64,000 nt of DNA from an uncultured Bacteroidales bacterium (GTDB lineage Bacteria; Bacteroidota; Bacteroidia; Bacteroidales; JAIORY01): assembly GCA_964404485.1 (NCBI GenBank), contig CAYOKJ010000001.1:10064-74063 (forward strand), in the 5' to 3' direction. Every line of letters begins with the position of its first letter. Position 1 is the stretch's first letter. This document shows positions 3,099 to 35,379 of the stretch, piece by piece. A program made the translations under genes and the position numbers. The notes below the pieces were generated by a model. It ran no database searches and had not been told where the DNA came from. It saw only the letters and a list, made by a program, of their open reading frames with translations.

Positions 3099-4640
3099 TT
3101 ATTTATTCTCCTGATACTTCTCAAGATATTCTTCCCACTCAGTTAATTTTTCGTTTTTCATTACCCTTGGAAATTTGTTAGCTCCACCAACTTTTCCATG
3201 TTCTTCCATCCAATTATAAAAAACCTCTGATGGATATATTTCAACAAAAACTTCTTTAATTGCTTCTAATCTTTCTACTCTGTAATCATCATTGAGTATA
3301 TTCAGGTATTTATCAATTTTATTTCGAGCTACTTCAGGATCAATTTTATCATTAGTACCGAGAAACCATTTATGAGCAAATAAAGAATCATGACTTATAC
3401 CACCAACAGTAAACTCAGTAATTTCAACATTAAGCTCATCTTGTAGCATTTTTACTGCTCTATTCATATTTTCCTGTGAAAGATGCTCTCCACAAATACT
3501 CAAAAAATGTTTTGTTCGTCCGGTAATTATTATCTCGTAGTATTCTTTTGAAACAAATTTTATTGTATCACCAATTAAATACCGCCATGCTCCGGCACAT
3601 GTTGAAAGCATTACCGCATATTCTTTATTTTCTTCAACTTCGTCGATAGTAAACGTTTCAGGATTGCTTTTAATATTTCCTTCTGAATCAAAATTGTCAT
3701 CATTAAAAGGAACAAATTCATAAAATAAACCATTGTCAACCACAATTTGCATATTTCGATTATTTGGTTGCATCTGAAAAGCAATAAATCCTTCCGAAGC
3801 CAGATAAGACTCATTATAACGAATTGGTCTTGCCAATAATTTTTCGAAACTTTTGATGTATGGATCAAATGCTACACCACTATGAACATATACTGACAAA
3901 TTTGGCCAGATATCGTGAATAGTATCAACATTATAATATTCTATAATTTTTTCCATAATTATCTGTATCCATGCAGGAACTCCAACAATTACTCCAATAT
4001 CCCAGTTTTTGGCATTTTTAACAATTTCATCAAGTTTTGTTTGCCAATTACGTTCTTTCGAAATTCGCCTTCCTGGCTTATAAAAATGTTGAAACCAAAA
4101 TGGAATATTTCCAGCTGAGATACCAGAAAGATCACCTTCATAATAAGTTCCGTTATAATTCAAATGAGTGCTTCCTCCAATCATTAATATTCCTTTGTGA
4201 TAAAAATCTAATGGAAAATCATAGCGAACCATAGAAACCAATTGCCTGATGCTGGTTCTCTTAATTGCACGTATCATGTCTGAAGTTACGGGAATTTGTT
4301 TACTCGAAGCTTCTGATGTACCGGAAGTTAATGCAAAATATTTTACTTTGCCCGGCCAGCTAACGTAAGATTCACCGTTAAGTGCACGATACCACCAATT
4401 TTGAAACATTGAATTATAATCGAAAACAGGAACACTCTCTTTAAAAGCTTTTATCTTACAATCGCTGTTTAATATTTCATGGAACTTATAGTGTTCACCA
4501 AATGCAGTATATTGAGCTTTCCGGAGTAGTTTTATTAACACTTTTTCCTGAGCTTTAAAACTATTCTTTTTGCTCTTTTTTTCAATTGGGAAATTCCGCA
4601 ATTCGTAAGCTTTTTTTATTATCGACCCTATTATTGGCAT
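3099..4640 (-). CDS. GH3 auxin-responsive-promoter family protein (acyl-adenylate-forming enzyme superfamily)
   Basis: 513 aa. The N-terminus (...QEKVLIKLLRKAQYTAFGEHYKF) and TSGTS motif are typical of bacterial GH3 homologues common in Bacteroidota. Confidence 0.8.
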   Translation of the reverse strand: MPIIGSIIKKAYELRNFPIEKKSKKNSFKAQEKVLIKLLRKAQYTAFGEHYKFHEILNSDCKIKAFKESVPVFDYNSMFQNWWYRALNGESYVSWPGKVKYFALTSGTSEASSKQIPVTSDMIRAIKRTSIRQLVSMVRYDFPLDFYHKGILMIGGSTHLNYNGTYYEGDLSGISAGNIPFWFQHFYKPGRRISKERNWQTKLDEIVKNAKNWDIGVIVGVPAWIQIIMEKIIEYYNVDTIHDIWPNLSVYVHSGVAFDPYIKSFEKLLARPIRYNESYLASEGFIAFQMQPNNRNMQIVVDNGLFYEFVPFNDDNFDSEGNIKSNPETFTIDEVEENKEYAVMLSTCAGAWRYLIGDTIKFVSKEYYEIIITGRTKHFLSICGEHLSQENMNRAVKMLQDELNVEITEFTVGGISHDSLFAHKWFLGTNDKIDPEVARNKIDKYLNILNDDYRVERLEAIKEVFVEIYPSEVFYNWMEEHGKVGGANKFPRVMKNEKLTEWEEYLEKYQENK

Positions 4641-4919: not shown

Positions 4920-5996
4920 ATGAAAATAAAACTACTAAGATTTTTTAAATTTTTGGGAATAATTATTTCCGTTATTATTGTTTTGCTTGTAAGCTTTGTG
5001 GCTTATATTTCTATCACAGATTATAAGCCTGCCAAAATGGAAAATGTTTCGTTAAACGGAAATAAATCTGAAAACATTTCTATGCCGGAAGAACTTTCTT
5101 TTATTAGCTGGAATATTGGTTATTGCGGTCTTGGCGAAGATATGGATTTCTTTTATGAAGGCGGAAAAATGGTCAGACCTGATGAAAATAATTTTAATAA
5201 ATACCTTAACGGGATTGAAAAGGTTCTAAAATCAGTTGATAGTGTTGATTTTGTTCTTTTGCAGGAAGTTGATGAATATTCGAAAAGAAGTTATTACATT
5301 GATCAAACTAAAATATTATCTTCTATTTTTTCGGGATATACTTCAATAATGGTAAAAAATTACGATGTTAAGTTTGTCCCTGTCCCACTTACTTCACCCA
5401 TGGGAAGAGTGAAAGGAGGAATAATGACTTTGTCGAAATATAATCCAGCTGAAGCAATACGTTTTGCTTATCCATTAATTACTTCGTGGCCAAATAGCCT
5501 TTTTATGTTAGACAGATGTTTTCTGGTTTATAAATTTAAGCTTAAAAACAAAAAAGAATTAATTGTAGTTAATACACACAACTCGTTTTTTGTTAAAAAA
5601 GAAGGTCCAAGAAATGCCGAATTAAATGTCTTGAAAAATTACCTGCTCAAAGAATCGGCGAAAGGAAATTATATAATTTGCGGTGGCGACTGGAATCAAA
5701 ACCCACCAAACTTCGAAACTGATAAATTCTTATCGGGAGATGTTTTTGAAAAGACTTTTATGCAAATAAAAAAAGATTTTATGCCTGAAGATTGGACATG
5801 GGCGTATGATTCTGATTATCCGACTAACCGCAATGTTCAGTCTCCATATACAAAAGGCAAAACAAAAACCACGCTTATCGACTATTTTCTTACTTCACCA
5901 AATATTGAAGTATTGGAAGTAAAAACCATCCCGATTGATTTTGAATTTTCCGATCATCAACCGGTTTATATGAGGGTAAAAATGAGAATGGAATAA
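4920..5996 (+). CDS. endonuclease/exonuclease/phosphatase (EEP) family protein with an N-terminal membrane anchor
   Basis: 358 aa. N-terminal TM helix, then SWNIGYCG, LLQEVD, VNTH, GGDWN and SDHQP motifs typical of the EEP fold. Confidence 0.75.
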   Translation: MKIKLLRFFKFLGIIISVIIVLLVSFVAYISITDYKPAKMENVSLNGNKSENISMPEELSFISWNIGYCGLGEDMDFFYEGGKMVRPDENNFNKYLNGIEKVLKSVDSVDFVLLQEVDEYSKRSYYIDQTKILSSIFSGYTSIMVKNYDVKFVPVPLTSPMGRVKGGIMTLSKYNPAEAIRFAYPLITSWPNSLFMLDRCFLVYKFKLKNKKELIVVNTHNSFFVKKEGPRNAELNVLKNYLLKESAKGNYIICGGDWNQNPPNFETDKFLSGDVFEKTFMQIKKDFMPEDWTWAYDSDYPTNRNVQSPYTKGKTKTTLIDYFLTSPNIEVLEVKTIPIDFEFSDHQPVYMRVKMRME

Positions 5997-7562: not shown

Positions 7563-8956
7563 ATGAAAATAAAATCATCAATAGAAGAAATAATCCAAAA
7601 ACAAAGCGAATATTTTAAAACAGGAGTTACAAGACCTGTTTCTTTCAGAATCAGGCAATTAAAAATATTAAAAGAGCTGATTAAAGAAAATGAAAAAGCT
7701 ATTTCCGGGGCACTTTTTGCTGATTTCAAAAAATGTGAATTTGAAAGTTTTGCCACAGAAATTGGAATGGTTTTACTTGATATTTCTCATACAATCAAAC
7801 ATCTTAAAAAATGGGCAAGACCAAAACATATAAGAGCAAGCCTTGCAAATTTTCCAAGCAGCGATAGTATTCATTTCGATCCTTATGGAGTTTGTCTTAT
7901 TATTTCTCCATGGAATTATCCTTTTCAGTTATTGATTGGTCCAATGATTGGAGCTATTAGTGGCGGAAATACAATTGTTATTAAACCGTCAGAACTAACT
8001 CCCAACACAAGTAAGTTGATGAATGAAATTATTTCCGGCAACTTTAAAAAAGAATATATTTCTGTTGTTGAGGGTGGGGTAGAAGAAACAACTTTATTAC
8101 TTAAACAAAAATTTGATAAAATATTTTTTACAGGAAGTGTTTCTGTTGGAAGAATAGTTAATCAGGCAGCTGCAAAAAATCTTATTCCTGTTACTTTGGA
8201 ATTAGGAGGAAAAAGTCCGTGTATTGTTGACGAAACTGCAAAACTTAAACTAACTGCAAAAAGAATTGCCTGGGGAAAATTTCTTAATGCAGGACAAACC
8301 TGCATTGCTCCCGACTATATTTATATTCATGAAAATGTAAAAAACAGTTTATTGAACACCTTAAACAAGCAATAAAAAATCTTTATGGTGATGATCCGAA
8401 AAGATCAGAAGACTTTCCACGGATTATTAATGAAAGAAATTATAATCGTTTGTCAGAGATGATAAACCCGGATAAATTAATTATTGGAGGAGAAACCAGC
8501 AAAGATGAGCTGTACATTGCTCCAAGTGTTTTGACAAATGTAAGTTGGGAAGATAAAGTTATGGAAGATGAAATTTTCGGTCCTATATTACCTATGCTTT
8601 CTTTTAATAATCTTGAAGATGTTATCAACGAATTAAATAAACATCCTGAACCACTGGCGATGTATATTTTCAGTCATAATAAAAAGCAAGTTAAACAGCT
8701 TATAGAAAATACATCTTCGGGTGGTTTTTGTGTAAACGAAACTGTTTCGCATTTTGTAAATCTTAATATGCCTTTTGGTGGAGTTGGAAACAGCGGAATT
8801 GGAAATTATCATGGGAAGTATAGTTTCAGGTGTTTTACTCACGAGAAAAGTGTGTTAAAGAAATCTACTAAATTTGATCTTGCTTTGCGTTATCCACCAT
8901 ATAAAACCAAGGTAAAAATTTTACGAAGAGTTTATAAAATTTTACAGAGTTTATAA
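7563..8956 (+). pseudogene. aldehyde dehydrogenase (ALDH3-like) interrupted by a frameshift at an A6 run
   Basis: ORFs 7563..8375 and 8450..8956 are the two halves of one ALDH (LELGGKSP, AGQTCIAPDY, PFGGVGNSGIGNYHG). The +2 frame from 8348 continues FIEHLKQAIKNLYGDDPKRSEDFPRIINERNYNRLSEM. Confidence 0.8.
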
Positions 8957-22720: not shown

Positions 22721-25700
22721 TTAGTGATTGTGTTTTAGATCAAACCTGAAAAATAATGGTAAATAAAGAAACAGGACAATAATTGAAAATAATAAACCTC
22801 CGATAGAACCTACAGCCAAAGCAAACCAAAACACTTCGTTTTGCCCGTAAACAATAAAAGGGACTAATCCCAAAATTGTTGAAATAATTGTTAATAATAT
22901 TGGAACTATTTTATTATTGTACGCCTTTAAATACAATTTTAACTTAGAAATATTGTGGTTATTATGTACTTTACGTAAATTATTAAATTCGTTAGTTATA
23001 TAGATTGATGAATTTACAACTATTCCGCTTAACAGAATAAATGAAGCATATCCTCCCTGATCAAAATTATAATCGAAAAGATAGAAAGTTAAGAAAATAC
23101 CTATGAATGATAAGGGTATTATGGAGATTATTGCTAATGGCTGAATAAATGATTCAAATAAAATAGCACAAATAAAATATACCAAAATAATTATCAAGAA
23201 AATTAAATAATACTGCTTTTCATTATTGTCATTCCAAAAACTCCATGATCTTTGTTTAGCATAATATCCAAGTGGCAATTCATCTTTCATTTCATCTAAA
23301 ACACTTTTTAAATGCAAATTGCCAAACTTTGAACTACCAAGATAATTATATTTAACAATGCGTATATATTGCTGATTTTCCTTGTATATACTTGAGCTTG
23401 CTTGTTTTTTTTCTACCTCAGATAAATGTTCAAGTTTTATAGACCCATTTTTTGATACGGGAGAATGAAACATATTCCAAATATCAAATTCTGAACTTTG
23501 TTTAGAGAGTATCTTAATATTTTTATATTTTCCATCAATAATATATGATAGATCAGAATAATTTTGAAGAGATATTTTTTTTAGTTGAGCGTAAATTCCA
23601 TCAACACTTATTCCTTTTAAAGCAAGTTTATTTTTATCAATATCAATATTGTACTCATAAAGTTTTTCTCGTTTCCACCAATAATTTGATCCACTAATAT
23701 TTACTTTTTGCACTCTTGGATGCTTTAAAAGTTTTTCTTCAAATTTCTTTGCTTGTTCATAAAGCATATCATAATTATATCCATATAATACAATAGCATA
23801 ATTAATCATATCACTTGTGCCTGCGCGGCTCGAAAATCCTTTTCCAACACCATAAATATTCCAACTCATGCCCCCGAGATCAATACTTTTTGAAATCAAT
23901 TTGCTTTTCAAAATATAGGGAAATGCAGAATTTTCGAAATCCTTTTTAAAATATATGGTCATCTCTGAATTTTGACTACTATATATTTTTGTAATATATT
24001 GTTGAATTTCGTTGTATTGAGATATGTGACTTTCAATTTGTTTGAAAACCGAATTCATTTGTTTGGTAGTTGACCCTTTTGGCATTGAAGCTGAAACATA
24101 CAAAGCTGTCTTTTCCGGTTTTGAATAATATGATTGCTCGAAAACATAATAATTAAATAGCCGTAAAGTTCCACCAAGAAATTTATTTACCGAAGGTTTA
24201 AAATTCTCAATATACCATTCGCTACCAATAGTATTATTATATAATTCGGCATACCATTTATCTTCTTCAACTTTGTTTGGCAGTAAAAACACCGGAATAC
24301 CAAATGATAAAACAGCTATTGTTATTGCTGTTTTTTTATATCTGGATAAAAACACAATTATTTTTTCATAAAATTTAGTAAAATTTACTACTCTCTTTCT
24401 TCTTCTGGTTTTTAATTTCTTTTGTTGTTCCGAAAATTTGAAAAGATTCATTAGTGCAGGAATAAAAAACAAGGCAACCAATAATGATACCGACATATTA
24501 ACCATTATTATAACAGCAAAATCCCATAAATTCAACTTTATATTTTCAGGCAAAAAGAAAATAATAGATAATGCTGCAATAGTAGTTAAGGTAGATGCTA
24601 AGATAGCAAGAAAAACTTTTTTATTGTGTTGATGTTTTAAATGATCAATCATCACAATGCTATTGTCAATAATAATTCCTAATGATATTGTGATACCTGC
24701 TAATGAGTACAAATGGATTTCTATTCTGAAAAAATAATAAAGAGCAAAACAAATAGAAATATTAGAAAACAAACTGATAATTATTATTAAAACATATCGC
24801 AAATTACGGCTTATCAAAACAACAAACAACAATAGTATAATTATTGTAAAGAAAGTACGATAATAAATTTTTGATAATTCAGCTTTGATATATTCTGTTG
24901 TATCAGAACTTAATAAAATGGAATAGCCAGCTGGCAGATCATTTATTATATTTTGAATATTATCTTTAATTTTATTTGACAGAACCAAATTATTTATCCC
25001 TTTATTAGGATAAATAACAAGATAAATTGAGTTAAGACCGTTGATTCTAAAATATGAATCAGGGGTTTTTTCTTTGTATTTAATGTTTGTAATATCTGTA
25101 AGATATATAATTCTGTTGCCGGTTTTTTTTACAGGAATAGCTGACCAATTTATCTTTTCATCAACTTTATTTCTAAGAATAACTGATATTGATGATACAA
25201 AAGTATCCTTTGTATTAGCCTGATTTTCTATTTTGTATGCTGTGCCTAATGTTTGTTTATCAAAATATTGACGAATTGCTGTTAAAATATCATGATAATT
25301 TATTGAAAGATTTTGTATAATATTTTTGTCATAAGTTATTTGCCACTCAAAGTGAGACGAACCGTAAACTTCTATTTTATCAATACCATTTATTACAGAT
25401 AATTTCTTTTTAATGCTTTTTTCGGCATATTGTTGAATGAAATTTGGAGAAACAGGTCCATTTAAAGTATATGTTAATACCGGTTTTAATTCTGCATTAT
25501 CGGGACGATTGACCGAAATAACTGGATAGGATAATTCGACAGGTAATTTAGAATAAACCTGTCTGATAATTGAAGAAATCTCGAAACGAACAAAATCAAT
25601 ATCAGTATGTTTATCAAACGAAATTGTAATTTGTCCGTTGTTTTTTGACGATACAGAAGTTATTTTACTTATCCCTCTAACTTTGCTAAACAATCCTTCT

Positions 25701-25972
25701 AATTCGCTTGTAACCTCTTGCTCCAATATTTCGGGCGAAGCATTTTGCCAGTAATAGCTCACGGTAAGAGAAGGTAATGTTGATGAAGGATTTAACTGCA
25801 CCGACAATAGTGGAATAAATGATAATCCAAGCAAAACCAATGCAAAAAATATTATTGCTGTAGAAAAAGCCTTATTTGACTTTCGCATTGACCCATAAAT
25901 TATTTGATTATTATTTGCGTTAAGTTTATTCATTCTATTTGTAAAATTAATATAATTATTTACACATTGCAT
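22721..25972 (-). CDS. efflux RND transporter permease subunit (AcrB/HAE family), no cognate adaptor gene adjacent
   Basis: About 1080 aa with 12-TM AcrB-like architecture. The true start is probably internal (MRKSNKAFSTAIIFFALVLLG, about 25888). Divergent from the LytTR gene. Confidence 0.85.
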   Translation of the reverse strand: MQCVNNYINFTNRMNKLNANNNQIIYGSMRKSNKAFSTAIIFFALVLLGLSFIPLLSVQLNPSSTLPSLTVSYYWQNASPEILEQEVTSELEGLFSKVRGISKITSVSSKNNGQITISFDKHTDIDFVRFEISSIIRQVYSKLPVELSYPVISVNRPDNAELKPVLTYTLNGPVSPNFIQQYAEKSIKKKLSVINGIDKIEVYGSSHFEWQITYDKNIIQNLSINYHDILTAIRQYFDKQTLGTAYKIENQANTKDTFVSSISVILRNKVDEKINWSAIPVKKTGNRIIYLTDITNIKYKEKTPDSYFRINGLNSIYLVIYPNKGINNLVLSNKIKDNIQNIINDLPAGYSILLSSDTTEYIKAELSKIYYRTFFTIIILLLFVVLISRNLRYVLIIIISLFSNISICFALYYFFRIEIHLYSLAGITISLGIIIDNSIVMIDHLKHQHNKKVFLAILASTLTTIAALSIIFFLPENIKLNLWDFAVIIMVNMSVSLLVALFFIPALMNLFKFSEQQKKLKTRRRKRVVNFTKFYEKIIVFLSRYKKTAITIAVLSFGIPVFLLPNKVEEDKWYAELYNNTIGSEWYIENFKPSVNKFLGGTLRLFNYYVFEQSYYSKPEKTALYVSASMPKGSTTKQMNSVFKQIESHISQYNEIQQYITKIYSSQNSEMTIYFKKDFENSAFPYILKSKLISKSIDLGGMSWNIYGVGKGFSSRAGTSDMINYAIVLYGYNYDMLYEQAKKFEEKLLKHPRVQKVNISGSNYWWKREKLYEYNIDIDKNKLALKGISVDGIYAQLKKISLQNYSDLSYIIDGKYKNIKILSKQSSEFDIWNMFHSPVSKNGSIKLEHLSEVEKKQASSSIYKENQQYIRIVKYNYLGSSKFGNLHLKSVLDEMKDELPLGYYAKQRSWSFWNDNNEKQYYLIFLIIILVYFICAILFESFIQPLAIISIIPLSFIGIFLTFYLFDYNFDQGGYASFILLSGIVVNSSIYITNEFNNLRKVHNNHNISKLKLYLKAYNNKIVPILLTIISTILGLVPFIVYGQNEVFWFALAVGSIGGLLFSIIVLFLYLPLFFRFDLKHNH

Positions 25973-26114: not shown

Positions 26115-26468
26115 ATGAAAAAACTACAAGTTACTACCCAAAATGGTTTTCAGTTTATTAATCCATTAACTATTTTATTTCTGAAAGCAAGCAATAATTA
26201 TACTGAAATTTTTTATACAGATAATAGTGATACACAACTAATTTGCAAAACTATAGGAAAAATTGAAAAATGTTTGCCAAGCGAATTATTTTTCAGATGC
26301 CACAGAACGTATATTATTAACATCAAGCAAATAACTGAGTTTAAATATTTGAATTGTGGTGGTATAATTACTTTAAAAAATAATCAGAAGATAAAACTTG
26401 CAAAACGAAAAAAGAAAATGTTCTTAGAAATTATCAAAAAAAATACATTTTCCCCGCTTACTCAGTAA
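26115..26468 (+). CDS. stand-alone LytTR family DNA-binding protein (no receiver domain)
   Basis: 117 aa. LytTR signature ...FFRCHRTYIINIKQI... Its last codons overlap the first 21-bp repeat unit of the downstream promoter. Confidence 0.85.
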   Translation: MKKLQVTTQNGFQFINPLTILFLKASNNYTEIFYTDNSDTQLICKTIGKIEKCLPSELFFRCHRTYIINIKQITEFKYLNCGGIITLKNNQKIKLAKRKKKMFLEIIKKNTFSPLTQ

Positions 26469-26517
26469 AACCGACCGCTCACTAAATAATCCGTACCGTT
26501 TACAAAAGACTTTCTTT
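26455..26517 (+). promoter_or_regulatory. 21-bp-phased direct repeats (2 good units plus 1 degenerate), candidate LytTR operator
   Basis: CGCTTACTCAGTAAAACCGAC (26455-75), CGCTCACTAAATAATCCGTAC (26476-96), then the degenerate CGTTTACAAAAGACTTTCTTT. Abuts the -33 region. Confidence 0.6.
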
Positions 26518-26521
26518 TTTG

Positions 26522-26553
26522 CTTGACAGGGAGACATTTATAATATAACTTTG
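26522..26553 (+). promoter_or_regulatory. Bacteroidetes-type promoter (-33 cTTG, 20-nt spacer, -7 TAACTTTG)
   Basis: TAACTTTG at 26546-26553 fits TAnnTTTG. TTG at 26523-26525. Start codon is 85 nt downstream. Confidence 0.55.
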
Positions 26554-26637
26554 CTATTAAAATAAATAATATTTCCAATTTAAAATCCAATACTATTTAT
26601 TATTCAAATTTTATTTATTAACTAAAAATTATGTATT

Positions 26638-26871
26638 ATGAAAAAGAAAACTATTAACAAATTATTTGTAGCAATATCTGTTACAATTTTTGGTATATTA
26701 CTTTTTTTTGCAACACCAAATAAATCTTATACTGCTGAGCCTACTACTTCAATATACCGTACATGTTGGAAATGGTGTGATCAACATTATGTTATTAGAT
26801 GTCGTCCTAACGGATCGGAATGTCTTGCTTCATGGCAAGATTTATGTAGTGATTCAACAAATGAACAATAG
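26638..26871 (+). CDS. small secreted Cys-rich peptide precursor 1 (77 aa; predicted 44-aa mature part with 5 Cys)
   Basis: MKKKTINKLFVAISVTIFGILLFFATPNKSYTA|EPTTSIYRTCWKWCDQHYVIRCRPNGSECLASWQDLCSDSTNEQ. Sec-type signal. First gene behind the conserved promoter. Confidence 0.6.
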   Translation: MKKKTINKLFVAISVTIFGILLFFATPNKSYTAEPTTSIYRTCWKWCDQHYVIRCRPNGSECLASWQDLCSDSTNEQ

Positions 26872-26878
26872 AACAATT

Positions 26879-26935
26879 ACCTGCTGTATTATGTAAAGTA
26901 TTGTAATATTAGAATACAAGTAGAAAACAGCAGGT
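26879..26935 (+). terminator. stem-loop after peptide gene 1 (candidate partial terminator/attenuator)
   Basis: ACCTGCTGT (26879-87) pairs with ACAGCAGGT (26927-35). An inner GTATT/AATAC stem is present. Followed by TATTTTG. Confidence 0.4.
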
Positions 26936-26956
26936 TATTTTGATAATAATAATAAT

Positions 26957-28180
26957 ATGTCAAAATACTTTTACCTTTTACTTACTTTATTAATCTTGAT
27001 GTTAATATCATGCAATGAAAAAGTTCACAATATAAAAGAGCAAAAATTTATAAAAAAAATATCAATTAACCCAACAAAAAATAATCTCTCAAAATTATCT
27101 GACATATTATCACAAAATTATAAAATAATTAGCTTGGAATCAAATGAAAATAGCCTAATTGGTAAAATTGATAAGATCGTTTTTTTAGATAGTAAAATTT
27201 TTATTTTAGATAAAGATAAAACAAAATCAATATTCATTTTTAATAATAATGGAAAATATGAATCAAAAATATCACGCTTTGGAGAAGGACCAAATCAATA
27301 TATCGAATTAGGTGATTTTTATATTGATAGTATTACAAAAACAGTAAATATTTTAAATACTTTTCCTGCTCGCTTGATGACATACGATTATCTTGGTAAT
27401 TTCCTTGCTGAAAAAAGAATTGCAGATTTTGCCTGCCAGATTGCCATCAACTCCGACAGCAATTTCTGTCTTTATTTGGGCAATAACATAACTTCTGAAA
27501 CAGTTTTTCATGACCTGATAATACAAAACAATAATAATGAAATTGTTGCTAAATATTTTCCTATTGACTCAGGTGATCAGTCAAAAGCTGTGATGATACC
27601 TTCCAATTTTTGTAGTTTTGGCGATTCCTTATCATTTATTCGTCCATTTTCCGACACAGTATTTGACATCACAACCAATGATATGAAAACTAAGTTCGTG
27701 TTTGATTTCGGAAAACACAATATGCCCAATGACTTCTTCAAAAACAAAAACTTAAGAAGCAATATACCACGCTTCTTTAATAAAGCCCAAAAGCTTATTA
27801 ACAAAAATCAATATGCATCCGATATTCAACCATATTACGAATCAGAGTTTCTTATTTACTTTTCATTTCTTTTTCAGAATAAAAAGAATTATTCATTTTA
27901 TTCAAAGAAGTCAAAGAAAGTATATCACACAAATTTAATTAGAAATGATATTATCCCCATTAAAATAAGTAAAGTTATAAAAGTGAAAAAAAAACAATTA
28001 ATTACAATTGTTGATGCATACGAATTTAAAAACGGAATTACGAATTTTTATAACGAATTAAATAAAACAAAGAAAAAGCATTTTTTTAAATCTAATTCTA
28101 AATTGGTTTTAACTGCCGTTAAAATAAAAAATACAGATAACCCAATCCTTATTGTTTACAACATAAAAGAATCGTTTTAA
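26957..28180 (+). CDS. 6-bladed beta-propeller lipoprotein (BF3164-like family)
   Basis: 407 aa. Lipobox LMLISC. The family-typical stretch KIFILDKDKTKSIFIFNNNGKYESKISRFGEGPNQY. Repeated beta-strand blades. Confidence 0.7.
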   Translation: MSKYFYLLLTLLILMLISCNEKVHNIKEQKFIKKISINPTKNNLSKLSDILSQNYKIISLESNENSLIGKIDKIVFLDSKIFILDKDKTKSIFIFNNNGKYESKISRFGEGPNQYIELGDFYIDSITKTVNILNTFPARLMTYDYLGNFLAEKRIADFACQIAINSDSNFCLYLGNNITSETVFHDLIIQNNNNEIVAKYFPIDSGDQSKAVMIPSNFCSFGDSLSFIRPFSDTVFDITTNDMKTKFVFDFGKHNMPNDFFKNKNLRSNIPRFFNKAQKLINKNQYASDIQPYYESEFLIYFSFLFQNKKNYSFYSKKSKKVYHTNLIRNDIIPIKISKVIKVKKKQLITIVDAYEFKNGITNFYNELNKTKKKHFFKSNSKLVLTAVKIKNTDNPILIVYNIKESF

Positions 28181-28186
28181 TAAAGC

Positions 28187-28816
28187 ATGTATAAAGATAA
28201 ATTAAAACAAATATCTATTCCGATTGCAATTATACTAATGGCTGCACTTATTTTGATATATTTTTATTTTAATAGTAAAATTGAAAGCTTTGAGCACAAT
28301 ATTTTTGTACTTGAAAAAAATGCTAAATCATATAAAAGCATGACTAACTCAATTCTACATTCCAATTACTTGCGAATAAAAAATGATGACCAGCCTTTCT
28401 CCCACAACATTTTTCTTTATAGTGATGATAATGATAGTATTACCTTTACAAATTTGATAAAGCAAAATAAAAAATTGCTGGTTTTCAGGTATTCCGAATT
28501 AAACTGCATGGCTTGTATTGACAAAGAAGTACTAAATTTAAAACAGTTCTTAAAAAACAGCAACGTGAAAATAATTATCATAGCAACCTATTCAAGCATG
28601 CGCGATTTATACTTATTTAAAAGGATAAACCAAATACCAAAAGCAAAAATTTATAACATTAAAAACCAACAAATGGGTCTTCCAATAGAAAAAAACAATA
28701 TCCCATATTATTTTGTTGCTGAAACTAATTTTGTAGCTGGAAAGTTTTTTGTGCCTAATAAATTATTCCCTGAATATTCTCAAAAATATTTATCAGAAAT
28801 TAATAAACTACCCTGA
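28187..28816 (+). CDS. membrane-anchored thioredoxin-fold protein with CxxC (CMAC)
   Basis: 209 aa. N-terminal signal-anchor helix. KKLLVFRYSELNCMACIDKE (beta1-CxxC-alpha1). A cis-Pro-like NIPYYFVAE follows later. Confidence 0.65.
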   Translation: MYKDKLKQISIPIAIILMAALILIYFYFNSKIESFEHNIFVLEKNAKSYKSMTNSILHSNYLRIKNDDQPFSHNIFLYSDDNDSITFTNLIKQNKKLLVFRYSELNCMACIDKEVLNLKQFLKNSNVKIIIIATYSSMRDLYLFKRINQIPKAKIYNIKNQQMGLPIEKNNIPYYFVAETNFVAGKFFVPNKLFPEYSQKYLSEINKLP

Positions 28817-28925
28817 GGCAGAGCCATAGGGGTATTAAATTGAGTTTGCTTTGCAAACATAATTGTTTTCGACCCAGAGGGTCGAGGAATTAAACCACGA
28901 ATGATTAAAAATAATACATTTTCCC

Positions 28926-28988
28926 CGCTTACTCAGTAAAACCGAAAGCTCACTTAGTAAAACCGACCGCTCACTAAATAATCCGTAC
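28926..28988 (+). promoter_or_regulatory. 21-bp-phased direct repeats (3 good units), candidate LytTR operator
   Basis: CGCTTACTCAGTAAAACCGAA (28926-46), AGCTCACTTAGTAAAACCGAC (28947-67), CGCTCACTAAATAATCCGTAC (28968-88). Confidence 0.6.
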
Positions 28989-29013
28989 CGTTTACAAAAG
29001 ACTTTCTTTTTTG

Positions 29014-29045
29014 CTTGACAGAGAGACATTTATAATATACCTTTG
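29014..29045 (+). promoter_or_regulatory. Bacteroidetes-type promoter (-33 cTTG, 20-nt spacer, -7 TACCTTTG)
   Basis: TACCTTTG at 29038-29045. TTG at 29015-29017. Same geometry as copy 1. Confidence 0.55.
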
Positions 29046-29129
29046 GTGTCAAAATAAATAATATTTTCAATTTAAAATACGATACTATTTATTATTCAAA
29101 TTTAATTTATTAACTAAAAATTATGTATT

Positions 29130-29354
29130 ATGAAAAAATTAACTGTATTTTTATCAATTGCTGTAAGTGTAATAATGTTTTTTGCCATTGCAGTAAATGT
29201 TTATGCCGAACCTCCTACTCAAGGTAGTGTTTTTGTTTCATCAAACGATTGTGAATATCAATTTGACGCCTATGATGTGAATGATAAATGTTTCTGTATG
29301 TGGAGTGGTATTGAGAATGAGTTCTGCTCATGTTGTAGTAGTAGTATCGATTGA
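29130..29354 (+). CDS. small secreted Cys-rich peptide precursor 2 (74 aa; predicted 48-aa acidic mature part with 6 Cys)
   Basis: MKKLTVFLSIAVSVIMFFAIAVNVYA|EPPTQGSVFVSSNDCEYQFDAYDVNDKCFCMWSGIENEFCSCCSSSID. Confidence 0.6.
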   Translation: MKKLTVFLSIAVSVIMFFAIAVNVYAEPPTQGSVFVSSNDCEYQFDAYDVNDKCFCMWSGIENEFCSCCSSSID

Positions 29355-29375
29355 TGAAATTTGAATTTTAACAAT

Positions 29376-29403
29376 AAGCCTTATGGCAATTGCCATAAGG
29401 CTT
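29376..29403 (+). terminator. perfect 28-nt palindrome after peptide gene 2 (candidate partial terminator/attenuator)
   Basis: AAGCCTTATGGCAATTGCCATAAGGCTT is its own reverse complement. Followed by AATTTTATATTTATT. It swallows the ORF-track ATG at 29383. Confidence 0.5.
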
Positions 29404-29418
29404 AATTTTATATTTATT

Positions 29419-30543
29419 ATGAAGAAGATTTTATTTGGATTATTATTAATACTGATTAGTTGCAATAATAAAAACAGTACAATACAAGAAAAACAACATA
29501 TTAAAGCAATCAGTAGAAATATTGATCAGGAGAGTTTGAAACTAGATGCTGAAGTTTCATTTGTGCAATTAGAAACTTCAAAGGAATGTCTTTTGGGGTA
29601 TATTATAAATATAGAAGTTACTGATGATTATATTTATATTTTGGATAGAAGTAGCTTTTTTGTTTTTACAAATAAAGGAAATTTTATAAAAAAGATTAAA
29701 AGAGGGAAAGGTCCAGGTGAATTAACCAGAGCAATAAATTTTAGTTTAGATTTAGCTCGAAATGAAATATATATAATAGAGATGGGCAATCTTTTACATA
29801 TATACAACAATCTTGCTGATTATAAAGAAACACATAAGTTGGATGGAAGTTTTATTGATGTTGTGAGAGTAGATGATGATAATTTTCTTTTATATACTGT
29901 GCTTCCACCAAAATATGAAGAATTTTTAATTTCAGTTTATAATAAAAAGAGTAAAAATATTACTAACAAATTCATTTCATCTAAAGATTTGTTAATGAAA
30001 GATTTGTCTATATTAACATATAATAATTTTTTTGTTAAAAACAGTGAAATATTCTTTTCAGCATCCAATTCAAGAAACATATATAAATACATAGGAAATG
30101 GCATGGAGACAACTTACTCAATTGATTTTAGGAATTTGGAACCACCTATATCATATTTTAGCATGTTTGATGATGTACGAAATTTCAAGAAAATGGTATA
30201 TAATGATGATTACGTTGGATTTTTAAATTATTGTTATGATCTTGGTAAGCTTGTGCTTTTTGGATTTAAATGTAAAGACTTTAACTGTGGGATTAAATAT
30301 AAAGATGAGAATATTATGTACATGAGTTCAGTTTCTGAACTATTTGATTTACCTCAAACACCTTCATTTGAAAGGCCTTATAATGCAAATGACAATCAAA
30401 TTCACTTTGTTTATTTTAATGATATTTTATTAAATGATAATTTACAAAAAAAAGAAGCGTTTTTAGAGATTGGCAATAAAATTATTCAAGTAAATGAAAA
30501 TAATAACCCAATTATTGTTACTCTCAAAATAAAAGAAAAGTAA
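29419..30543 (+). CDS. 6-bladed beta-propeller lipoprotein (BF3164-like family), paralogue 2
   Basis: Start moved to MKKILFGLLLILISC (lipobox). YIYILDRSSFFVFTNKGNFIKKIKRGKGPGEL matches the family G-x-GPGE motif. About 25% identical to 26957..28180 by eye. Confidence 0.7.
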   Translation: MKKILFGLLLILISCNNKNSTIQEKQHIKAISRNIDQESLKLDAEVSFVQLETSKECLLGYIINIEVTDDYIYILDRSSFFVFTNKGNFIKKIKRGKGPGELTRAINFSLDLARNEIYIIEMGNLLHIYNNLADYKETHKLDGSFIDVVRVDDDNFLLYTVLPPKYEEFLISVYNKKSKNITNKFISSKDLLMKDLSILTYNNFFVKNSEIFFSASNSRNIYKYIGNGMETTYSIDFRNLEPPISYFSMFDDVRNFKKMVYNDDYVGFLNYCYDLGKLVLFGFKCKDFNCGIKYKDENIMYMSSVSELFDLPQTPSFERPYNANDNQIHFVYFNDILLNDNLQKKEAFLEIGNKIIQVNENNNPIIVTLKIKEK

Positions 30544-30544
30544 T

Positions 30545-31168
30545 ATGAAACTTAAATGGAATATTTTTTATTTTATTTTATCAGCAATACTATTAAGTAT
30601 AATTTTAATTTTACTATATAATTTTAAAACAAAATTAGAAACAGAGTTTAATAAAAAATACTCCCAAATCAAAAATGAATGTGATTTAGTTCAAGATGTA
30701 TTAATGAATAATTTAACTAATTCAAATTCTAATATTGGATTTAGATTTAATGATGATATTATTGTAGAGGACACAGCTTGCAATAAGTTGAAGTTAATAA
30801 ATATAATCAATGGAGAAAATGTTTTAATATATAGAATATCAGACACACATTGTTCTACGTGTGACGTTGCTGGTATAAAAAGTTTGTTAAGAACCAACTC
30901 AAAAATACCTTATAATAAGATTATTATAATAGGATCTTTTTATAATACAAAATTGTTGAATTCTTATATTACTGCTAATAATATTAAATATAGGTCTTAT
31001 AATCTCAAACAAAGCATTAATATTAAAGCTGAGAAATTTAACTTCCCCTATTTCATTATAGTAAATAAAAATTTAGAAGTACTAAGTTGTTTTTTTCCCG
31101 AAAAGACAAAACCATATTTAACTGAGTATTTTTTTTCAGGAATAAAGCATTTATTAAATAATTATTAA
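30545..31168 (+). CDS. membrane-anchored thioredoxin-fold protein with CxxC (CSTC), paralogue 2
   Basis: 207 aa. N-terminal anchor helix, NVLIYRISDTHCSTCDVAG, and later FNFPYFIIVNKN. Begins 1 nt after the stop of the propeller gene. Confidence 0.65.
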   Translation: MKLKWNIFYFILSAILLSIILILLYNFKTKLETEFNKKYSQIKNECDLVQDVLMNNLTNSNSNIGFRFNDDIIVEDTACNKLKLINIINGENVLIYRISDTHCSTCDVAGIKSLLRTNSKIPYNKIIIIGSFYNTKLLNSYITANNIKYRSYNLKQSINIKAEKFNFPYFIIVNKNLEVLSCFFPEKTKPYLTEYFFSGIKHLLNNY

Positions 31169-31219
31169 AACTAATTTACATAATTAACGAAATAATAAAG
31201 CTACAATAGTTGTTTTGTT

Positions 31220-31254
31220 TTTGCATTTTAATATCTTTTTTATTTCTACCTTTG
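31220..31254 (+). promoter_or_regulatory. possible promoter of the adaptor-RND operon (-7 TACCTTTG)
   Basis: TACCTTTG at 31247-31254, 22 nt before ATG 31276. TTTG at 31220-31223, but the 23-nt spacer is longer than consensus. Confidence 0.35.
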
Positions 31255-31275
31255 TCTAAAATCCATACTCCTAAA

Positions 31276-32337
31276 ATGAAAATACTAAAATTCATTTCTT
31301 TTATCCTTGTTTTAATTTCTATCTCATGTACTAACAACAATAAGGATATTGAAGACAGCAAGATCGAAAACAAATCGAATGATGAAATACAAAAAGTTGA
31401 GATAGTTGAAGTATTTCCACAAGTTTTTTATAATCAAATAATAGCAAACGGTAAACTTTCGGCGGTTCAAAAAGCAGAAATTAAATTTAAAACCTCAGGA
31501 ACACTAAACAAGATATTAGTAAAAAACGGAGACAGAGTCAAAAAAAATCAAACAATTGCAGTTATTGAAAATACTACACAAAATTTAGAAATTGCATCAG
31601 CCAAAGATGCTTTGGATAATGCAAGAATTGAGTTAAACTCGTTAATTATCGGGTACGGTGGCAAGCAAAATGATACTTTAAGTGTACCTATTTATATTTA
31701 CGAAAATCTTAAAATTCAAAGCATGTATAATAGTACATTAAATTCTTTACAAAAAGCAAAACTTAATTTTTCTTATACAATTTGTAAAGTTCCATTTAAC
31801 GGAATAATAGGCAACTTATCTATAAAAAATCATAACTTTATTAATTCATCCGATGATTTTTGTACTATTATTAATGATAAATATTTTGAAGTCGAATATT
31901 CGATTATCGAAACAGAAGCACCTTATTTATCATTAAATCAAACTGTACAAATAATTCCTTTTTCAGATGAAAAATTAAAAATAGAAGGAAAAATATCTGA
32001 AATAAATCCTATGGTTGATGATGACGGTTTAATAAATATTAAAGCATTAATAAAAAATCCTGCAAATAATTTTCTTGATGGTATGAATGTTAAAGTAATT
32101 ATTAAAACACCGGTAAAAAATCAACTTGTTATACCAAAAGAAGCACTCGTACTAAGGTCTAACCGAGAAGTTGTTTTTACTTACAAAAACCAATTAGCAA
32201 AATGGAATTACGTAACAATTGCTTATGAAAACAGTAATACTTATGCCATTTTGGAAGGAATAAATGCCGGTGATTCGGTAATCTATAAAGGAAATTTGAA
32301 TCTGGCGCATGATGCTAAGGTCGTGCTTAATAAATAA
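31276..32337 (+). CDS. efflux RND transporter periplasmic adaptor subunit (lipoprotein)
   Basis: Start moved to MKILKFISFILVLISISC (lipobox). Lipoyl-like hairpin (TSGTLNKILVKNGDRVKKNQTIAVIE) and a beta-barrel C-terminus. Confidence 0.85.
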   Translation: MKILKFISFILVLISISCTNNNKDIEDSKIENKSNDEIQKVEIVEVFPQVFYNQIIANGKLSAVQKAEIKFKTSGTLNKILVKNGDRVKKNQTIAVIENTTQNLEIASAKDALDNARIELNSLIIGYGGKQNDTLSVPIYIYENLKIQSMYNSTLNSLQKAKLNFSYTICKVPFNGIIGNLSIKNHNFINSSDDFCTIINDKYFEVEYSIIETEAPYLSLNQTVQIIPFSDEKLKIEGKISEINPMVDDDGLINIKALIKNPANNFLDGMNVKVIIKTPVKNQLVIPKEALVLRSNREVVFTYKNQLAKWNYVTIAYENSNTYAILEGINAGDSVIYKGNLNLAHDAKVVLNK

Positions 32338-32343
32338 TTAATA

Positions 32344-35300
32344 GTGATTAAATTCCTCATACATCGTCCCATAGCAGTTATAATGACTCTTGTAGCATTA
32401 GTTACTCTTGGTGTGATTACTGCCTATAAATTACCCGTTTCCTTACTTCCTAATATTGATATTCCTGAAATTACAATACAAATAAATTATAAAAACACTT
32501 CGGCGAGAGAATTAGAAAATGCAGTTGTAAAACCCATACGCAACCAGTTACTTCAGTTAAATCATTTAAAAGATATTAAAAGTGAAACAAAAGATGGTTA
32601 TTCTATACTTAATTTAAAATTTGATTATAAAACAAATATCAATTATGCTTTTATCGAAACCAATGAAAAGATAGATGCATTAATGAGTTCTATGCCGAGA
32701 GAAATGGAACGTCCGAAAATTATAAAAGCTTGTGCTTCCGATATTCCGGTTTTTAAAATAAGTATTATTCCTAAGGACGAATATTGGTATAAAGAAAATG
32801 ATTTACTCAAATTAAGTGAATTGGCAGAATCAGTAATTAAGAAAAGAATTGAACAACTTGATGTTGTTGCAATGGTTGATATTAGCGGTTTACAATCAGC
32901 AGAACTTGCAATAATTCCAGACATAAAAAAAATACAAAATCTTAATATTGATTATTCTAAAATAGAAAATGCAATTTCAAATAATAATATTGATCTGGGA
33001 AACATTACAATTAAAAATGGACAATATCAATACAACATTAGATTCTCTTCCATTTTACAAACAAAAGAAGATATTGGCAATATTTATTTGAGTACCGAAA
33101 AAAAGCGTATTATTCAACTTAAAAATATTGCCGAGATAAAAGTTCGTCCTCAAAAACGAACCGGAATGTACTTATATGATAATAAGGAAGCCATTATTAT
33201 GTCGGTAATTAAACAAGCTGATGCACAAATGGCTCAGTTAAAGGAAAGCCTTGATAAATTAGTTGACGAATTTAACAATAATTATAACGAAATTGAATTT
33301 AAAGTCAGTCAGGACCAAACTCAATTACTAAAATTTTCAATTAACAACCTTAAACAAAGCTTATTATTTGGCGGACTTTTAGCCATGGTGATTATGTTTA
33401 TTTTTATGAGAGATTACAAATCACCATTTCTTATTATCATAAGCATTCCTGCTTCATTGATTATCAGCATGTTTTTTCTTTATTTATCAGGAATATCAAT
33501 TAATATTATTTCACTCTCGGGTTTAATTCTCGGTGTAGGAATGATGGTTGATAATTCAATAATTGTAATTGATAATATTAATCAATATCTTGATAAATCA
33601 TATTCTCTTAACAAAGCTTGCATTTTGGGTACAAACGAAATAATTCGTCCTTTGATAAGCTCTGTTTTAACAACTTGTGCGGTTTTTGTTCCCCTTGTTT
33701 CTTTGAGTGATATTTCGGGAGCTTTGTTTTACGATCAGGCAGTAACTATTGCAATTAGTTTAACTACTTCATTATTGGTTTCAATCATGATATTACCTGT
33801 TTTATTTCGCTTATTTTATATTAAAAACAAAAACAGTAACAATTATTTGCTTAGCAAAAGTTATAATTTATTCGACATTGAAAAGATTTATGAAAAAAGC
33901 ATAAATTTTATCTTTAAAAATAAACTTATTGTATTGTTACTTTTTGTTCTATTAATTCCGCTGGGTATTTTTTTATTCAAGAATATTAAAAAACAAAGTT
34001 TTCCTGATATTAAACAAACCGCTGTTATATTTAATATTGACTGGAATGAAAATATAAACCTTGATGAAAACAAAAAACGAATAATAAATCTGTTTGAACA
34101 AATTAATACTCCTGTGCTGTATAAAAATATATTGATAGGTGAACAGCAATTTTTACTAAATAAAGAACAAGAAAAAAGTCAATCTGAAGCATCTGTATTT
34201 ATAAAAACTAAATCAACAAAAAATATAAAAAATATAAAAAATGAAATCGATAGTTTATTAAAATCAAATTATCAAAATATTGAATTTTCTTTTCAATCTC
34301 CCAAAAATGTTTTTGAGCAATTATTTAAAAATGATGAATCCTCCTTTGTGGTAAAAATTCAAAGTATCAATAAAAATATCCCTCCTAAAATTAACAAAGT
34401 GAATAATTTTATTACTCAATTACAAGATAAACCTTATGCACAATCAATTAACGAAATACCAATAAAAAACAATTTAGTAATATCAATATTATCCGACAAA
34501 TTACTAATTTATAATGTTTCATATCAAACTTTAATTGATCAACTCAAATCATCTTTTAATGAAAATAAAATAGGATTATTAAAATCGAATAATAAATTTA
34601 TTCCCATTATTATAGGTGAAAAAAATAAAATTCTTTTTGATATTATTAAAAATGTAAAAATTAAAAATATTAATAATGAACTTATTCCAATCAGCTCGTT
34701 AATATCAATTTCAACAAGGTCGGATTATAAAACTATTATTGCCGATAAACAAAGCGAATACATTCCGGTAAATTTATTAGCTAATAATAATGCTAAGATG
34801 ATTGAAGAAGACATAAATAACATTCTTAAAAATAGCTCAGAATTAGAAGCCGATTTTTCAGGTAGTATTTTTCGTAACCGCGAACTTTTAAATGAATTAG
34901 AAATTGTATTATTAATATCCGTTTTATTATTATATTTTATTTTGGCTGCACAATTCGAATCATTAATTCAACCAATAATTGTATTACTTGAAATTTTATT
35001 TGATCTTTCGGGTGCATTAATAATGTTAATTATTTTTGGTAACTCATTAAATATCATGTCAGCTATTGGTATCATTGTAATGGGTGGAATAATAATAAAT
35101 GATTCGATATTAAAAGTTGACACAATAAACCAATTAAAACGTCAGGATATTCCTTTACTAAAAGCAATAAAGATTGGAGGAAAACGTAGATTAAAACCAA
35201 TTATTATGACTTCACTCACCACTATATTAGCTTTATTCCCTTTATTGTTTTCATCGGGTATTGGAGTCGAATTACAAATACCATTAGCTTTGGCAATTAT

Positions 35301-35379
35301 CGGTGGAATGACAATTGGTACAATCGTCAGTTTGTATTTTATTCCGATTGCCTATTGGTTTATTTATAAAAATTCATGA
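32344..35379 (+). CDS. efflux RND transporter permease subunit (AcrB/HAE family)
   Basis: 1011 aa. GTG start, MIKFLIHRPIAVIMTLVAL. 12-TM AcrB architecture. Confidence 0.9.
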   Translation: MIKFLIHRPIAVIMTLVALVTLGVITAYKLPVSLLPNIDIPEITIQINYKNTSARELENAVVKPIRNQLLQLNHLKDIKSETKDGYSILNLKFDYKTNINYAFIETNEKIDALMSSMPREMERPKIIKACASDIPVFKISIIPKDEYWYKENDLLKLSELAESVIKKRIEQLDVVAMVDISGLQSAELAIIPDIKKIQNLNIDYSKIENAISNNNIDLGNITIKNGQYQYNIRFSSILQTKEDIGNIYLSTEKKRIIQLKNIAEIKVRPQKRTGMYLYDNKEAIIMSVIKQADAQMAQLKESLDKLVDEFNNNYNEIEFKVSQDQTQLLKFSINNLKQSLLFGGLLAMVIMFIFMRDYKSPFLIIISIPASLIISMFFLYLSGISINIISLSGLILGVGMMVDNSIIVIDNINQYLDKSYSLNKACILGTNEIIRPLISSVLTTCAVFVPLVSLSDISGALFYDQAVTIAISLTTSLLVSIMILPVLFRLFYIKNKNSNNYLLSKSYNLFDIEKIYEKSINFIFKNKLIVLLLFVLLIPLGIFLFKNIKKQSFPDIKQTAVIFNIDWNENINLDENKKRIINLFEQINTPVLYKNILIGEQQFLLNKEQEKSQSEASVFIKTKSTKNIKNIKNEIDSLLKSNYQNIEFSFQSPKNVFEQLFKNDESSFVVKIQSINKNIPPKINKVNNFITQLQDKPYAQSINEIPIKNNLVISILSDKLLIYNVSYQTLIDQLKSSFNENKIGLLKSNNKFIPIIIGEKNKILFDIIKNVKIKNINNELIPISSLISISTRSDYKTIIADKQSEYIPVNLLANNNAKMIEEDINNILKNSSELEADFSGSIFRNRELLNELEIVLLISVLLLYFILAAQFESLIQPIIVLLEILFDLSGALIMLIIFGNSLNIMSAIGIIVMGGIIINDSILKVDTINQLKRQDIPLLKAIKIGGKRRLKPIIMTSLTTILALFPLLFSSGIGVELQIPLALAIIGGMTIGTIVSLYFIPIAYWFIYKNS

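Follow-up and report, generated by a model that had tools for sequence, protein, structure and literature searches.

Six-bladed-propeller lipoproteins abound as paralogues in the Bacteroidota, which also encode many orphan thioredoxin-like proteins; functions are assigned to neither, and the peptide toxins or signals described from this phylum are few. Bacteroidetocins target BamA and are active against Bacteroidales. They are class IIf toxins of 42 amino acids (aa) with four cysteines, and depend on a co-encoded thiol oxidoreductase since Bacteroides lack a general disulfide machinery (PMC6671954). Judged by their described features, bacteroidetocins are the closest functional precedent for the cassette reported here. 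Its first gene, peptide 1, is a 77-aa open reading frame (ORF) at positions 26638-26871 of a 64,000-nucleotide stretch from an uncultured Bacteroidales bacterium (assembly GCA_964404485.1, contig CAYOKJ010000001.1, positions 10,064 to 74,063), which we refer to at its full length as the window; the features of the window lie on its forward strand unless stated otherwise. Peptide 1 is a real gene from an undescribed Bacteroidota peptide family, and with some reserve we lean towards reading its product as a Sec-exported, cleaved, two-disulfide peptide, secreted for interbacterial antagonism or signalling and helped by the proteins encoded with it. The finding would thus be of a familiar kind, a ribosomal, disulfide-stabilised secreted peptide with a dedicated oxidoreductase.

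Like the bacteroidetocins, peptide 1 measures about 44 aa after leader removal, has four invariant cysteines, comes from the Bacteroidota and is co-encoded with what looks like a dedicated thiol oxidoreductase. The leaders differ, being a double-glycine leader of about 15 aa in bacteroidetocins and a 33-aa Sec-type signal with n-, h- and c-regions and no GG motif in peptide 1. Bacteroidetocins furthermore come with an ATP-binding cassette (ABC) transporter carrying a C39 peptidase and with a protein of five transmembrane helices, both missing from the peptide 1 locus, which encodes a DUF5128 propeller instead. Sec-dependent class II bacteriocins of Gram-positive bacteria, such as enterocin P and lactococcin 972, share with peptide 1 the small unmodified peptide, the ordinary Sec signal and accessory or immunity genes directly downstream, but here the host is a diderm with an outer membrane to cross, the accessory genes are others, and there is no sequence relationship. 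The heat-stable toxins STa and STb of E. coli are Sec prepeptides that obtain their disulfides in the periplasm from the housekeeping DsbA and leave through a tripartite pump (TolC; MacAB for STb). This route via Sec, a periplasmic thioredoxin-fold enzyme and an efflux pump resembles the one proposed below, although STa and STb have no dedicated enzyme and no propeller partner and act on animal cells, and the resistance-nodulation-division (RND) genes near peptide 1 are a recurrent neighbourhood only.

Results and Discussion

An exhaustive HMMER scan covering 1.84 billion representatives returned six small homologues of peptide 1 (56-81 aa, E values of 4e-7 to 6e-4, 40-51% identity), and the profile search that followed brought the family to some 20 members, 56-93 aa in length. 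All of them carry a signal peptide with n-, h- and c-regions, which in most cases closes with a canonical AxA at one common alignment position. What is conserved is the C-terminal core, some 30-40 residues that align as …W-K-x-C-x(3-6)-V-I-R-C-x(5-8)-C-Y-A-S-W-Q-[DE]-L-C. The invariant residues, in precursor numbering, are C47, C55, C62, C70, A64, W66 and Q67; I53 and R54 come close to invariance, and mean pairwise identity amounts to 58% in the core versus 25% in the signal region. For the seven loci with DNA in hand, the proportion of nonsynonymous differences (pN, 0.21-0.51) lies below that of synonymous differences (pS, 0.53-0.83) in all 21 pairs, with synonymous sites saturated. The preliminary description, made from the letters of the window, had named beforehand a lack of codon-level conservation in related genomes as grounds for giving up the ORF; homologues exist, and their codons are conserved as coding.

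The exact peptide 1 protein is recorded on 22 contigs. Ten independent metagenome contigs were retrieved with 100% identical DNA, so that the fifth cysteine of peptide 1 is neither a sequencing error nor an assembly quirk. Synonymous variation was sought among these ten contigs and none was found, which is why the codon-level evidence was taken from distant homologues; a scan of metagenomes with the family profile added two short contigs only, both represented already. That the ORF could be a chance frame in AT-rich intergenic DNA, its cysteines meaningless, might be argued from a k-mer/word-seeded protein search, in which peptide 1 matched only itself, and from the missing match to any curated family. 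The idea is refuted by some 20 homologues in which Cys, Trp and Gln residues are invariant, by pN < pS in every pair, by conserved synteny, and by a cysteine density far above local background, the probability of at least five cysteines in 44 aa being 4e-5 at the cysteine content of 0.87% found in the window's 46 long ORFs.

NVEALA small proteins (PF14055) are frequent neighbours of propeller lipoproteins in Bacteroides, yet neither this nor any other Pfam model matched peptide 1 or the 20 family members at E<=0.1. Searches of Pfam, NCBIfam, PADLOC and PDB sequences gave no meaningful match for either peptide of the window, and weak matches to DUF6520 and Cxxx-repeat models in the family searches stayed far under the cut-offs. 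No curated family in these four collections covers the window peptides or the CxxC proteins described below. Three repeat proteins of 322-3041 aa (P0005-P0007) that had reached high HMMER scores were judged unrelated to peptide 1: they match over an 18-residue stretch only (VWKWCHSHHVILCEH…), with the score summed over 5, 12 and 32 repeat stretches, and their motif VWKWCHSHHVILCEH resembles the WKWC…VIRC part of peptide 1 only superficially.

The predicted mature peptide (26737-26868, 44 aa, EPTTSIYRTCWKWCDQHYVIRCRPNGSECLASWQDLCSDSTNEQ) has cysteines at positions 10, 14, 22, 29 and 37 as well as three Trp and two Tyr, bearing out the 44-aa, Trp-containing tail with five cysteines that had first been read from the 77-aa ORF, whose translation matches the one quoted then. 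The four family-invariant cysteines are C14, C22, C29 and C37, into which the two-disulfide core suggested at that time fits well. Further cysteines occur at two family positions, C1, eight residues N-terminal to C14, and C4, which sits in an R-C-x-C motif. Thirteen of 20 members have both, one has C1 alone, none C4 alone and six neither (Fisher p = 2e-4, relatedness of the sequences uncorrected). As C1 and C4 co-occur, a third, accessory C1-C4 disulfide is suggested for the members with both, which have six cysteines and make up the majority of the family; the single member with C1 and without C4 (P0028) shows a doubled CC at the C5 position. Four members have the core four cysteines only; their C4 position is taken by Pro or another residue.

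Peptide 1 itself is of the four-cysteine type (RCRP) with an additional C10, the first cysteine of CWKWC. Because the C10 column contains no cysteine in any of the 19 homologues, we take C10 to be a recent lineage-specific addition that is peripheral to the biology of the family and leaves one unpaired thiol, which may stay free, dimerise or be resolved by the CxxC protein; besides peptide 1, only P0012 has an odd number of cysteines in its mature part. The CxxxC pattern, which the preliminary description had pointed out, is consequently not a motif of the family. An AlphaFold2 (AF2) model of mature peptide 1 from the 20-sequence alignment contained four short strands at a mean predicted local distance difference test (pLDDT) of 58, too low for a fold search or for reading off a disulfide topology.

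The signal peptide (26638-26736, read from the sequence) begins with the positively charged MKKKTINK, continues with a hydrophobic core of about 17 residues (17-18, depending on where it is taken to end) and closes with the c-region TPNKSYTA. Cleavage after SYTA, before EP, is plausible but non-canonical with Tyr at -3, and may alternatively take place one residue earlier (SYT/AEP). This tyrosine and the long hydrophobic core would suit an uncleaved signal anchor, making peptide 1 a small tethered Cys-rich protein facing the periplasm, for instance one that serves the CxxC protein or the RND pump as redox substrate or regulator. We consider this quite improbable, given that in most homologues the aligned position holds a canonical AxA site, and given the 25% identity of the N-terminal region, which is typical of cleaved signals, and the extra S26 signal peptidase encoded at some homologue loci. 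A cleaved Sec signal is the reading that we follow. The A/EP junction had also been regarded as conserved and as a possible site of further processing. Most homologues, though, show AxA followed by D, G, N or Q, and A followed by [DE]P is found in about four sequences only, so that nothing indicates processing beyond signal peptidase.

Contrary to what had been noted at first, the mature peptide is not basic: four Lys and Arg face six Asp and Glu, the calculated isoelectric point (pI) is 4.95 and the net charge at pH 7 is about -2. Only residues 8-23 are locally basic, and the acidic tail of 7 aa is the longest in the family. At the start codon, a short out-of-frame ORF (26631-26657, ATG TAT TAT GAA AAA GAA AAC TAT TAA) overlaps the peptide 1 gene, and the start region ATGTATTATGAAAAA recurs at the second cassette of the window (29123-29149).

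Between peptide 1 and the next gene lies a stem-loop (26879-26942) with a 9-bp outer stem ACCUGCUGU/ACAGCAGGU followed by UAUUUUG and a predicted folding energy of -18.6 kcal/mol (z = -2.7), probably a leaky terminator or attenuator. The gene behind it (26957-28180) encodes a six-bladed beta-propeller lipoprotein with the lipobox LISC that matches DUF5128 (PF17170, E=2.5e-42). With 145.7 and 101.2 bits at a cut-off of 22.9, this protein and its counterpart from the second cassette are both clear members of the DUF5128/TolB-like propeller lipoproteins, and the PDB relative of the first, 4RAA, is annotated as a 'putative exported protein'. Literature searches on DUF5128, NVEALA, BF3164, DUF4934, DUF4221 and combinations of propeller, thioredoxin and peptide, of incomplete literature coverage, yielded nothing functional. 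No conserved His, Asp, Ser or Cys suggesting an active site appeared in the propeller comparison. A glutaminyl cyclase or amidating-lyase role of the propeller was considered and dropped, as the peptide N-termini are not consistently Q or E, the C-termini lack Gly and the propellers show no visible conserved catalytic residues.

The third gene (28187-28816) encodes a membrane-anchored protein of 209 aa with a CMAC motif (codons 28505-28516) and the cis-Pro motif NIPYY; its N-terminal transmembrane (TM) helix was read from the sequence. Neither Pfam nor NCBIfam, including the Redoxin, AhpC-TSA and Thioredoxin models, gave a match, so that we assign it at the level of fold only. Its AF2 model (pLDDT 74, 80-89 in the globular part) displays an N-terminal beta-hairpin and, following a beta-strand, a first long helix (108-123) with the CxxC at its N-terminal end. 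The top Foldseek matches in the PDB were ResA, TlpA, CcmG, DsbE/DsbF-like proteins and peroxiredoxins with probability 1.0 and a target-normalised TM-score of about 0.55-0.66. Among 12 cassette homologues the two cysteines of the CxxC are the sole invariant residues, and IP[YF] is found in ten. By predicted fold, the third gene product is an extracytoplasmic thiol-disulfide oxidoreductase of the ResA/TlpA type, sharing with ResA, TlpA and CcmG the membrane anchor, the N-terminal beta-hairpin, a CxxC where helix 1 begins and the cis-Pro loop. The CxxC partner that the preliminary description had envisaged for the peptide is accordingly co-encoded two genes downstream; classical members reduce apocytochromes or Cu-site proteins, whereas the presumed substrate here is the neighbouring peptide.

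A DUF5128 gene follows the peptide gene at every peptide 1 homologue with a fetched contig, and wherever contig and gene are intact, third place is taken by a TM-CxxC gene (about 195-205 aa, in most cases with C-M-P-C). The order of peptide, DUF5128 and CxxC protein of about 200 aa was found in loci L023-25, L026-28, L034-35, L036 and L011; L029 and L032/33 carry a truncated third gene. The same layout is used with unrelated Cys-rich prepeptides in L016 (8 Cys), L017 (4 Cys) and the second cassette of the window, and L032 carries two further cassettes in tandem with unrelated prepeptides of 8 and 6 Cys. A strong hairpin separates the peptide gene from the propeller gene in 10 of 11 cassettes examined. 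Not every DUF5128 member belongs to such a cassette: a genome scan with the propeller alignment returned seven distant loci, two of which had the full cassette.

The closest relatives of the window CxxC protein (43-45% identity) come from loci with the same arrangement (L011-L013). The chassis of the window is nearest to that of L011, whose peptide is barely alignable with peptide 1. Between the window and the six-cysteine group, in turn, identity amounts to 55-61% in the peptide core; the propellers reach 25-30% and the CxxC proteins 26-29%, no more than between the helpers of cassettes with unrelated peptides. The peptide gene may thus be mobile between cassettes, or the helpers may evolve much faster than the peptide; neither reading fits a strict one-to-one co-evolution.

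These arrangements also bear on a rival reading by analogy with methylamine dehydrogenase, which combines a Cys/Trp-rich light chain with a propeller heavy chain and the thioredoxin-like MauD. Peptide 1 would then not be released, but would be a small subunit or bound partner of the propeller, with the CxxC protein serving its assembly. The obligatory co-occurrence and order of a small Cys/Trp-rich protein, a beta-propeller and a TlpA-like protein, and the one Trp and one Gln invariant in the core, are what such a subunit would lead one to expect. We nevertheless give the idea little credence: a terminator-like hairpin in 10 of 11 cassettes argues against 1:1 stoichiometry, unrelated peptides occupy the same slot, peptide and propeller trees are incongruent, and the propeller is six-bladed and not seven-bladed. 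No maturase of the MauG, MauE or radical-SAM type lies nearby, and peptide, propeller and neighbours have no amine-dehydrogenase matches in Pfam.

In three independent loci, the window, L023/L024 and L014, the cassette is followed by a membrane-fusion protein (MFP) with or without an RND pump (L024 2335-3396; L023 10177-10617; L014 5783-7773). A signal-peptidase-I (Peptidase_S26) gene adjoins the cassette in L026 (7423-8211), L027, L028, L034 (2753-3796) and L033 (1548-1739) and may encode a dedicated leader peptidase; tblastn found no S26 homologue in the 64-kb window. Other genes near homologue cassettes (L023 3637-5167 and 5339-5856; L026/L027 2615-4262) encode Rhs/YD-repeat toxin fragments, with a small gene downstream of them, a nucleotidyltransferase/HepT pair and a Bro-N protein. 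A PadR regulator is encoded there too, accompanied by a membrane partner as it is in L018. These surroundings look like an accessory, conflict-type neighbourhood.

Within the window, a second cassette follows the first. Its peptide 2 (29130-29354) has six cysteines, a net charge of -8 and a core unrelated to that of peptide 1; BLASTP aligned the two along the signal peptide up to EPT only, in line with the dissimilarity past the junction noted earlier. A terminator-like hairpin (29375-29404; 13-bp stem, -24.7 kcal/mol, z = -6.1) precedes the second DUF5128 propeller lipoprotein (29419-30543, PF17170 E=8e-29), which is 29% identical to the first. Its start is probably the methionine of MKKILFGLLLILISC at 29419, from where the lipoprotein signal MKKILFGLLLILISC runs, and not position 29383 of the mechanical ORF, which falls inside the hairpin. 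The second membrane-anchored CxxC protein (30545-31168, CSTC) is 30% identical to the first.

Directly downstream, Pfam identified an HlyD-type membrane-fusion lipoprotein and an AcrB-type RND pump (31210-35379), which we tentatively suggest may act as exporter or self-protection pump. A further AcrB-type RND gene lies upstream of the regulator gene described next, on the reverse strand (22721-25972). The Pfam scan of neighbouring genes revealed neither an outer-membrane factor gene nor a modifying enzyme of ribosomally synthesised and post-translationally modified peptides (RiPPs) such as radical SAM, YcaO or LanB/C/M proteins; disulfide formation alone does not define a RiPP. PADLOC anti-phage models matched none of the seven cassette proteins.

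Encoded ahead of peptide 1 (26115-26468) is a stand-alone LytTR DNA-binding protein of 117 aa without a receiver domain (PF04397 E=2e-18, residues 14-107). NCBIfam returned weak partial matches only, to C-terminal parts of BtsR, LytR and AgrA. We presume that it regulates both cassettes. Three 9-bp direct repeats, CCGCTTACT, CCGCTCACT and CCGTTTACA, lie at 26454-26504 with 12-bp spacers and a 21-bp period, the first overlapping the last codons of the LytTR gene. They are followed by a putative Bacteroidota-type promoter (26518-26553) with a TTTG/TTG element at about 26518-26525 and the -7 box TAACTTTG at 26546-26553. In a motif scan this box was a perfect TAnnTTTG, which we take to be the Bacteroides promoter -7 consensus, and an AT-rich leader of about 80 nt comes after it. 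The second control region (28925-29045) has four repeats (28925-28996) and the -7 box TACCTTTG (29038-29045). The repeats share the consensus CCGYTYACW. A pattern search for them gave five overlapping matches across the window, none of them outside the two control regions, with none expected from 100 shuffles. Nine-bp repeats spaced by 12 (11-13) bp just upstream of a promoter are a hallmark of LytTR proteins, which, receiver-less ones included, bind such repeats and drive bacteriocin genes (PMC6193735). With a LytTR gene nearby, both control regions have the LytTR-type operator geometry and are predicted operators. HdrRM and BrsRM of Streptococcus mutans are similar in combining a receiver-less LytTR protein, 12-bp-spaced repeats just upstream of the promoter and genes for small secreted peptides (PMC6193735); they differ in phylum and promoter type and in their adjoining membrane inhibitor, which has no counterpart here, where LytTR binding is a prediction.

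Over the 190-230 nt before each peptide gene the two control regions are 93-94% identical (26456-26652 versus 28948-29144), despite units that are only about 30% identical at the protein level. The copy of cassette 2 (28898-29144 versus 26427-26652) carries one extra 21-bp repeat unit and a remnant of the last 13 LytTR codons (28898-28936); this remnant points to control DNA copied as a block, by block duplication or gene conversion. Rfam contains no family that matches the window control regions. Two antisense ORFs inside them, 26424-26537 (37 aa) and 28835-29029 (64 aa, called as a gene on some metagenome contigs, for example L002 6514-6708), look like by-products of conserved regulatory DNA and not like genes.

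Related loci have another conserved element, absent from the window, about 85-130 nt upstream of the prepeptide start (L023 ~7870-7960; L033 ~2260-2350 and ~3960-4021; L026 ~5000-5090; L034 ~500-600; L016 ~3460-3540; L032 36-53, 1730-1747 and 4208-4225). It is a tiny ORF of 19-29 codons, M-K-G-K-x-H…F-[RK]-[LI]-Q-[FK]-W-stop, with synonymous differences between loci, whose stop lies inside the 5' arm of a GC-rich hairpin (GTAGCTCCCC-TTTC-GGGGAGC). It was found before cassettes with unrelated peptides, has no Rfam match and may be a leader-peptide or arrest-type control element. In L032 (1538-1741) and L033 (3812-4015), a TlpA-like gene cut to 67 codons continues in frame into the tail of the conserved leader ORF (…KGKTHIKLLPHTFRLQFW*) belonging to the next cassette, and this fusion suggests recombination between cassettes at the 5' element.

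Only tentatively, and with more doubt than confidence, do we extend this picture to a widespread modular Bacteroidota system in which Cys-rich prepeptide, hairpin, DUF5128 propeller and TlpA-like CxxC protein serve hypervariable Sec-exported disulfide-knotted peptides and payloads are swapped at 5' control elements; the swap sites would be the LytTR boxes here and the tiny leader ORF with its hairpin elsewhere.

LytTR regulators classically belong to peptide quorum-sensing circuits (PMC6193735), and the regulator raises the question whether peptide 1 is instead an extracellular pheromone-like signal that feeds back, directly or indirectly, on the LytTR-controlled promoters, with the propeller as periplasmic receptor or processing scaffold. 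In favour of this, the peptide is better conserved between distant loci than its helpers (55-61% in the core against 25-30%), which is what a ligand with a conserved receptor elsewhere would show, and it is acidic and not cationic. This particular circuit seems unlikely to us all the same, because the LytTR protein has neither receiver nor sensor domain and no adjoining membrane partner or cognate kinase, homologue loci do without LytTR, and the unrelated payloads in tandem at L032 resemble an arsenal more than a signalling system. We favour a bacteriocin-like role for peptide 1, with a signalling role possible.

The favoured account of a secreted, helper-assisted peptide would run as follows. 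The LytTR protein would activate both cassette promoters, and the hairpin would keep peptide mRNA in excess over the read-through helper transcripts. The precursor would be exported by Sec and cut by type-I signal peptidase near SYTA/EP. In the periplasm the CxxC protein would then make, or proof-read and edit, two disulfides among C14, C22, C29 and C37, with the propeller lipoprotein binding the peptide as escort, as chaperone or for self-protection, and the adjacent MFP/RND pump may carry it across the envelope or keep it out. The end product would be a protease-resistant, disulfide-rich peptide secreted for use against or between bacteria.

Several points weigh against this account. Many membrane-active bacteriocins are cationic, whereas peptide 1 is acidic, and substrates of signal peptidase I do not usually have Tyr at -3. 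The propellers lack an evident catalytic or binding signature, and ResA/TlpA/CcmG proteins are classically reductases, so that the CxxC protein may work as oxidase, isomerase or reductase. Owing to the low AF2 confidence for the peptide, its disulfide topology is drawn from covariation only. The incongruent phylogenies of peptide and helpers weaken a strict toxin/immunity pairing, the RND link holds in only about three of eight loci with enough downstream sequence, and LytTR control is specific to this genome, as homologue loci use a different 5' element.

Conclusion

The family alignment pinpoints C10 as the odd cysteine of peptide 1, which makes the early remark on its five cysteines precisely testable by mutation and mass spectrometry. 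If the account given here is true, it would offer a second route to bacteroidetocin-like molecules, independent of ABC transporters, as well as small, probably protease-stable peptide scaffolds from bacteria of anoxic environments, and would provide a testable role for the propellers and orphan thioredoxin-like proteins of the Bacteroidota. Should the more tentative modular system exist as outlined, it would supply a first function for the large DUF5128/TolB-like propeller lipoprotein families and constitute a new class of diderm bacteriocins or signals.

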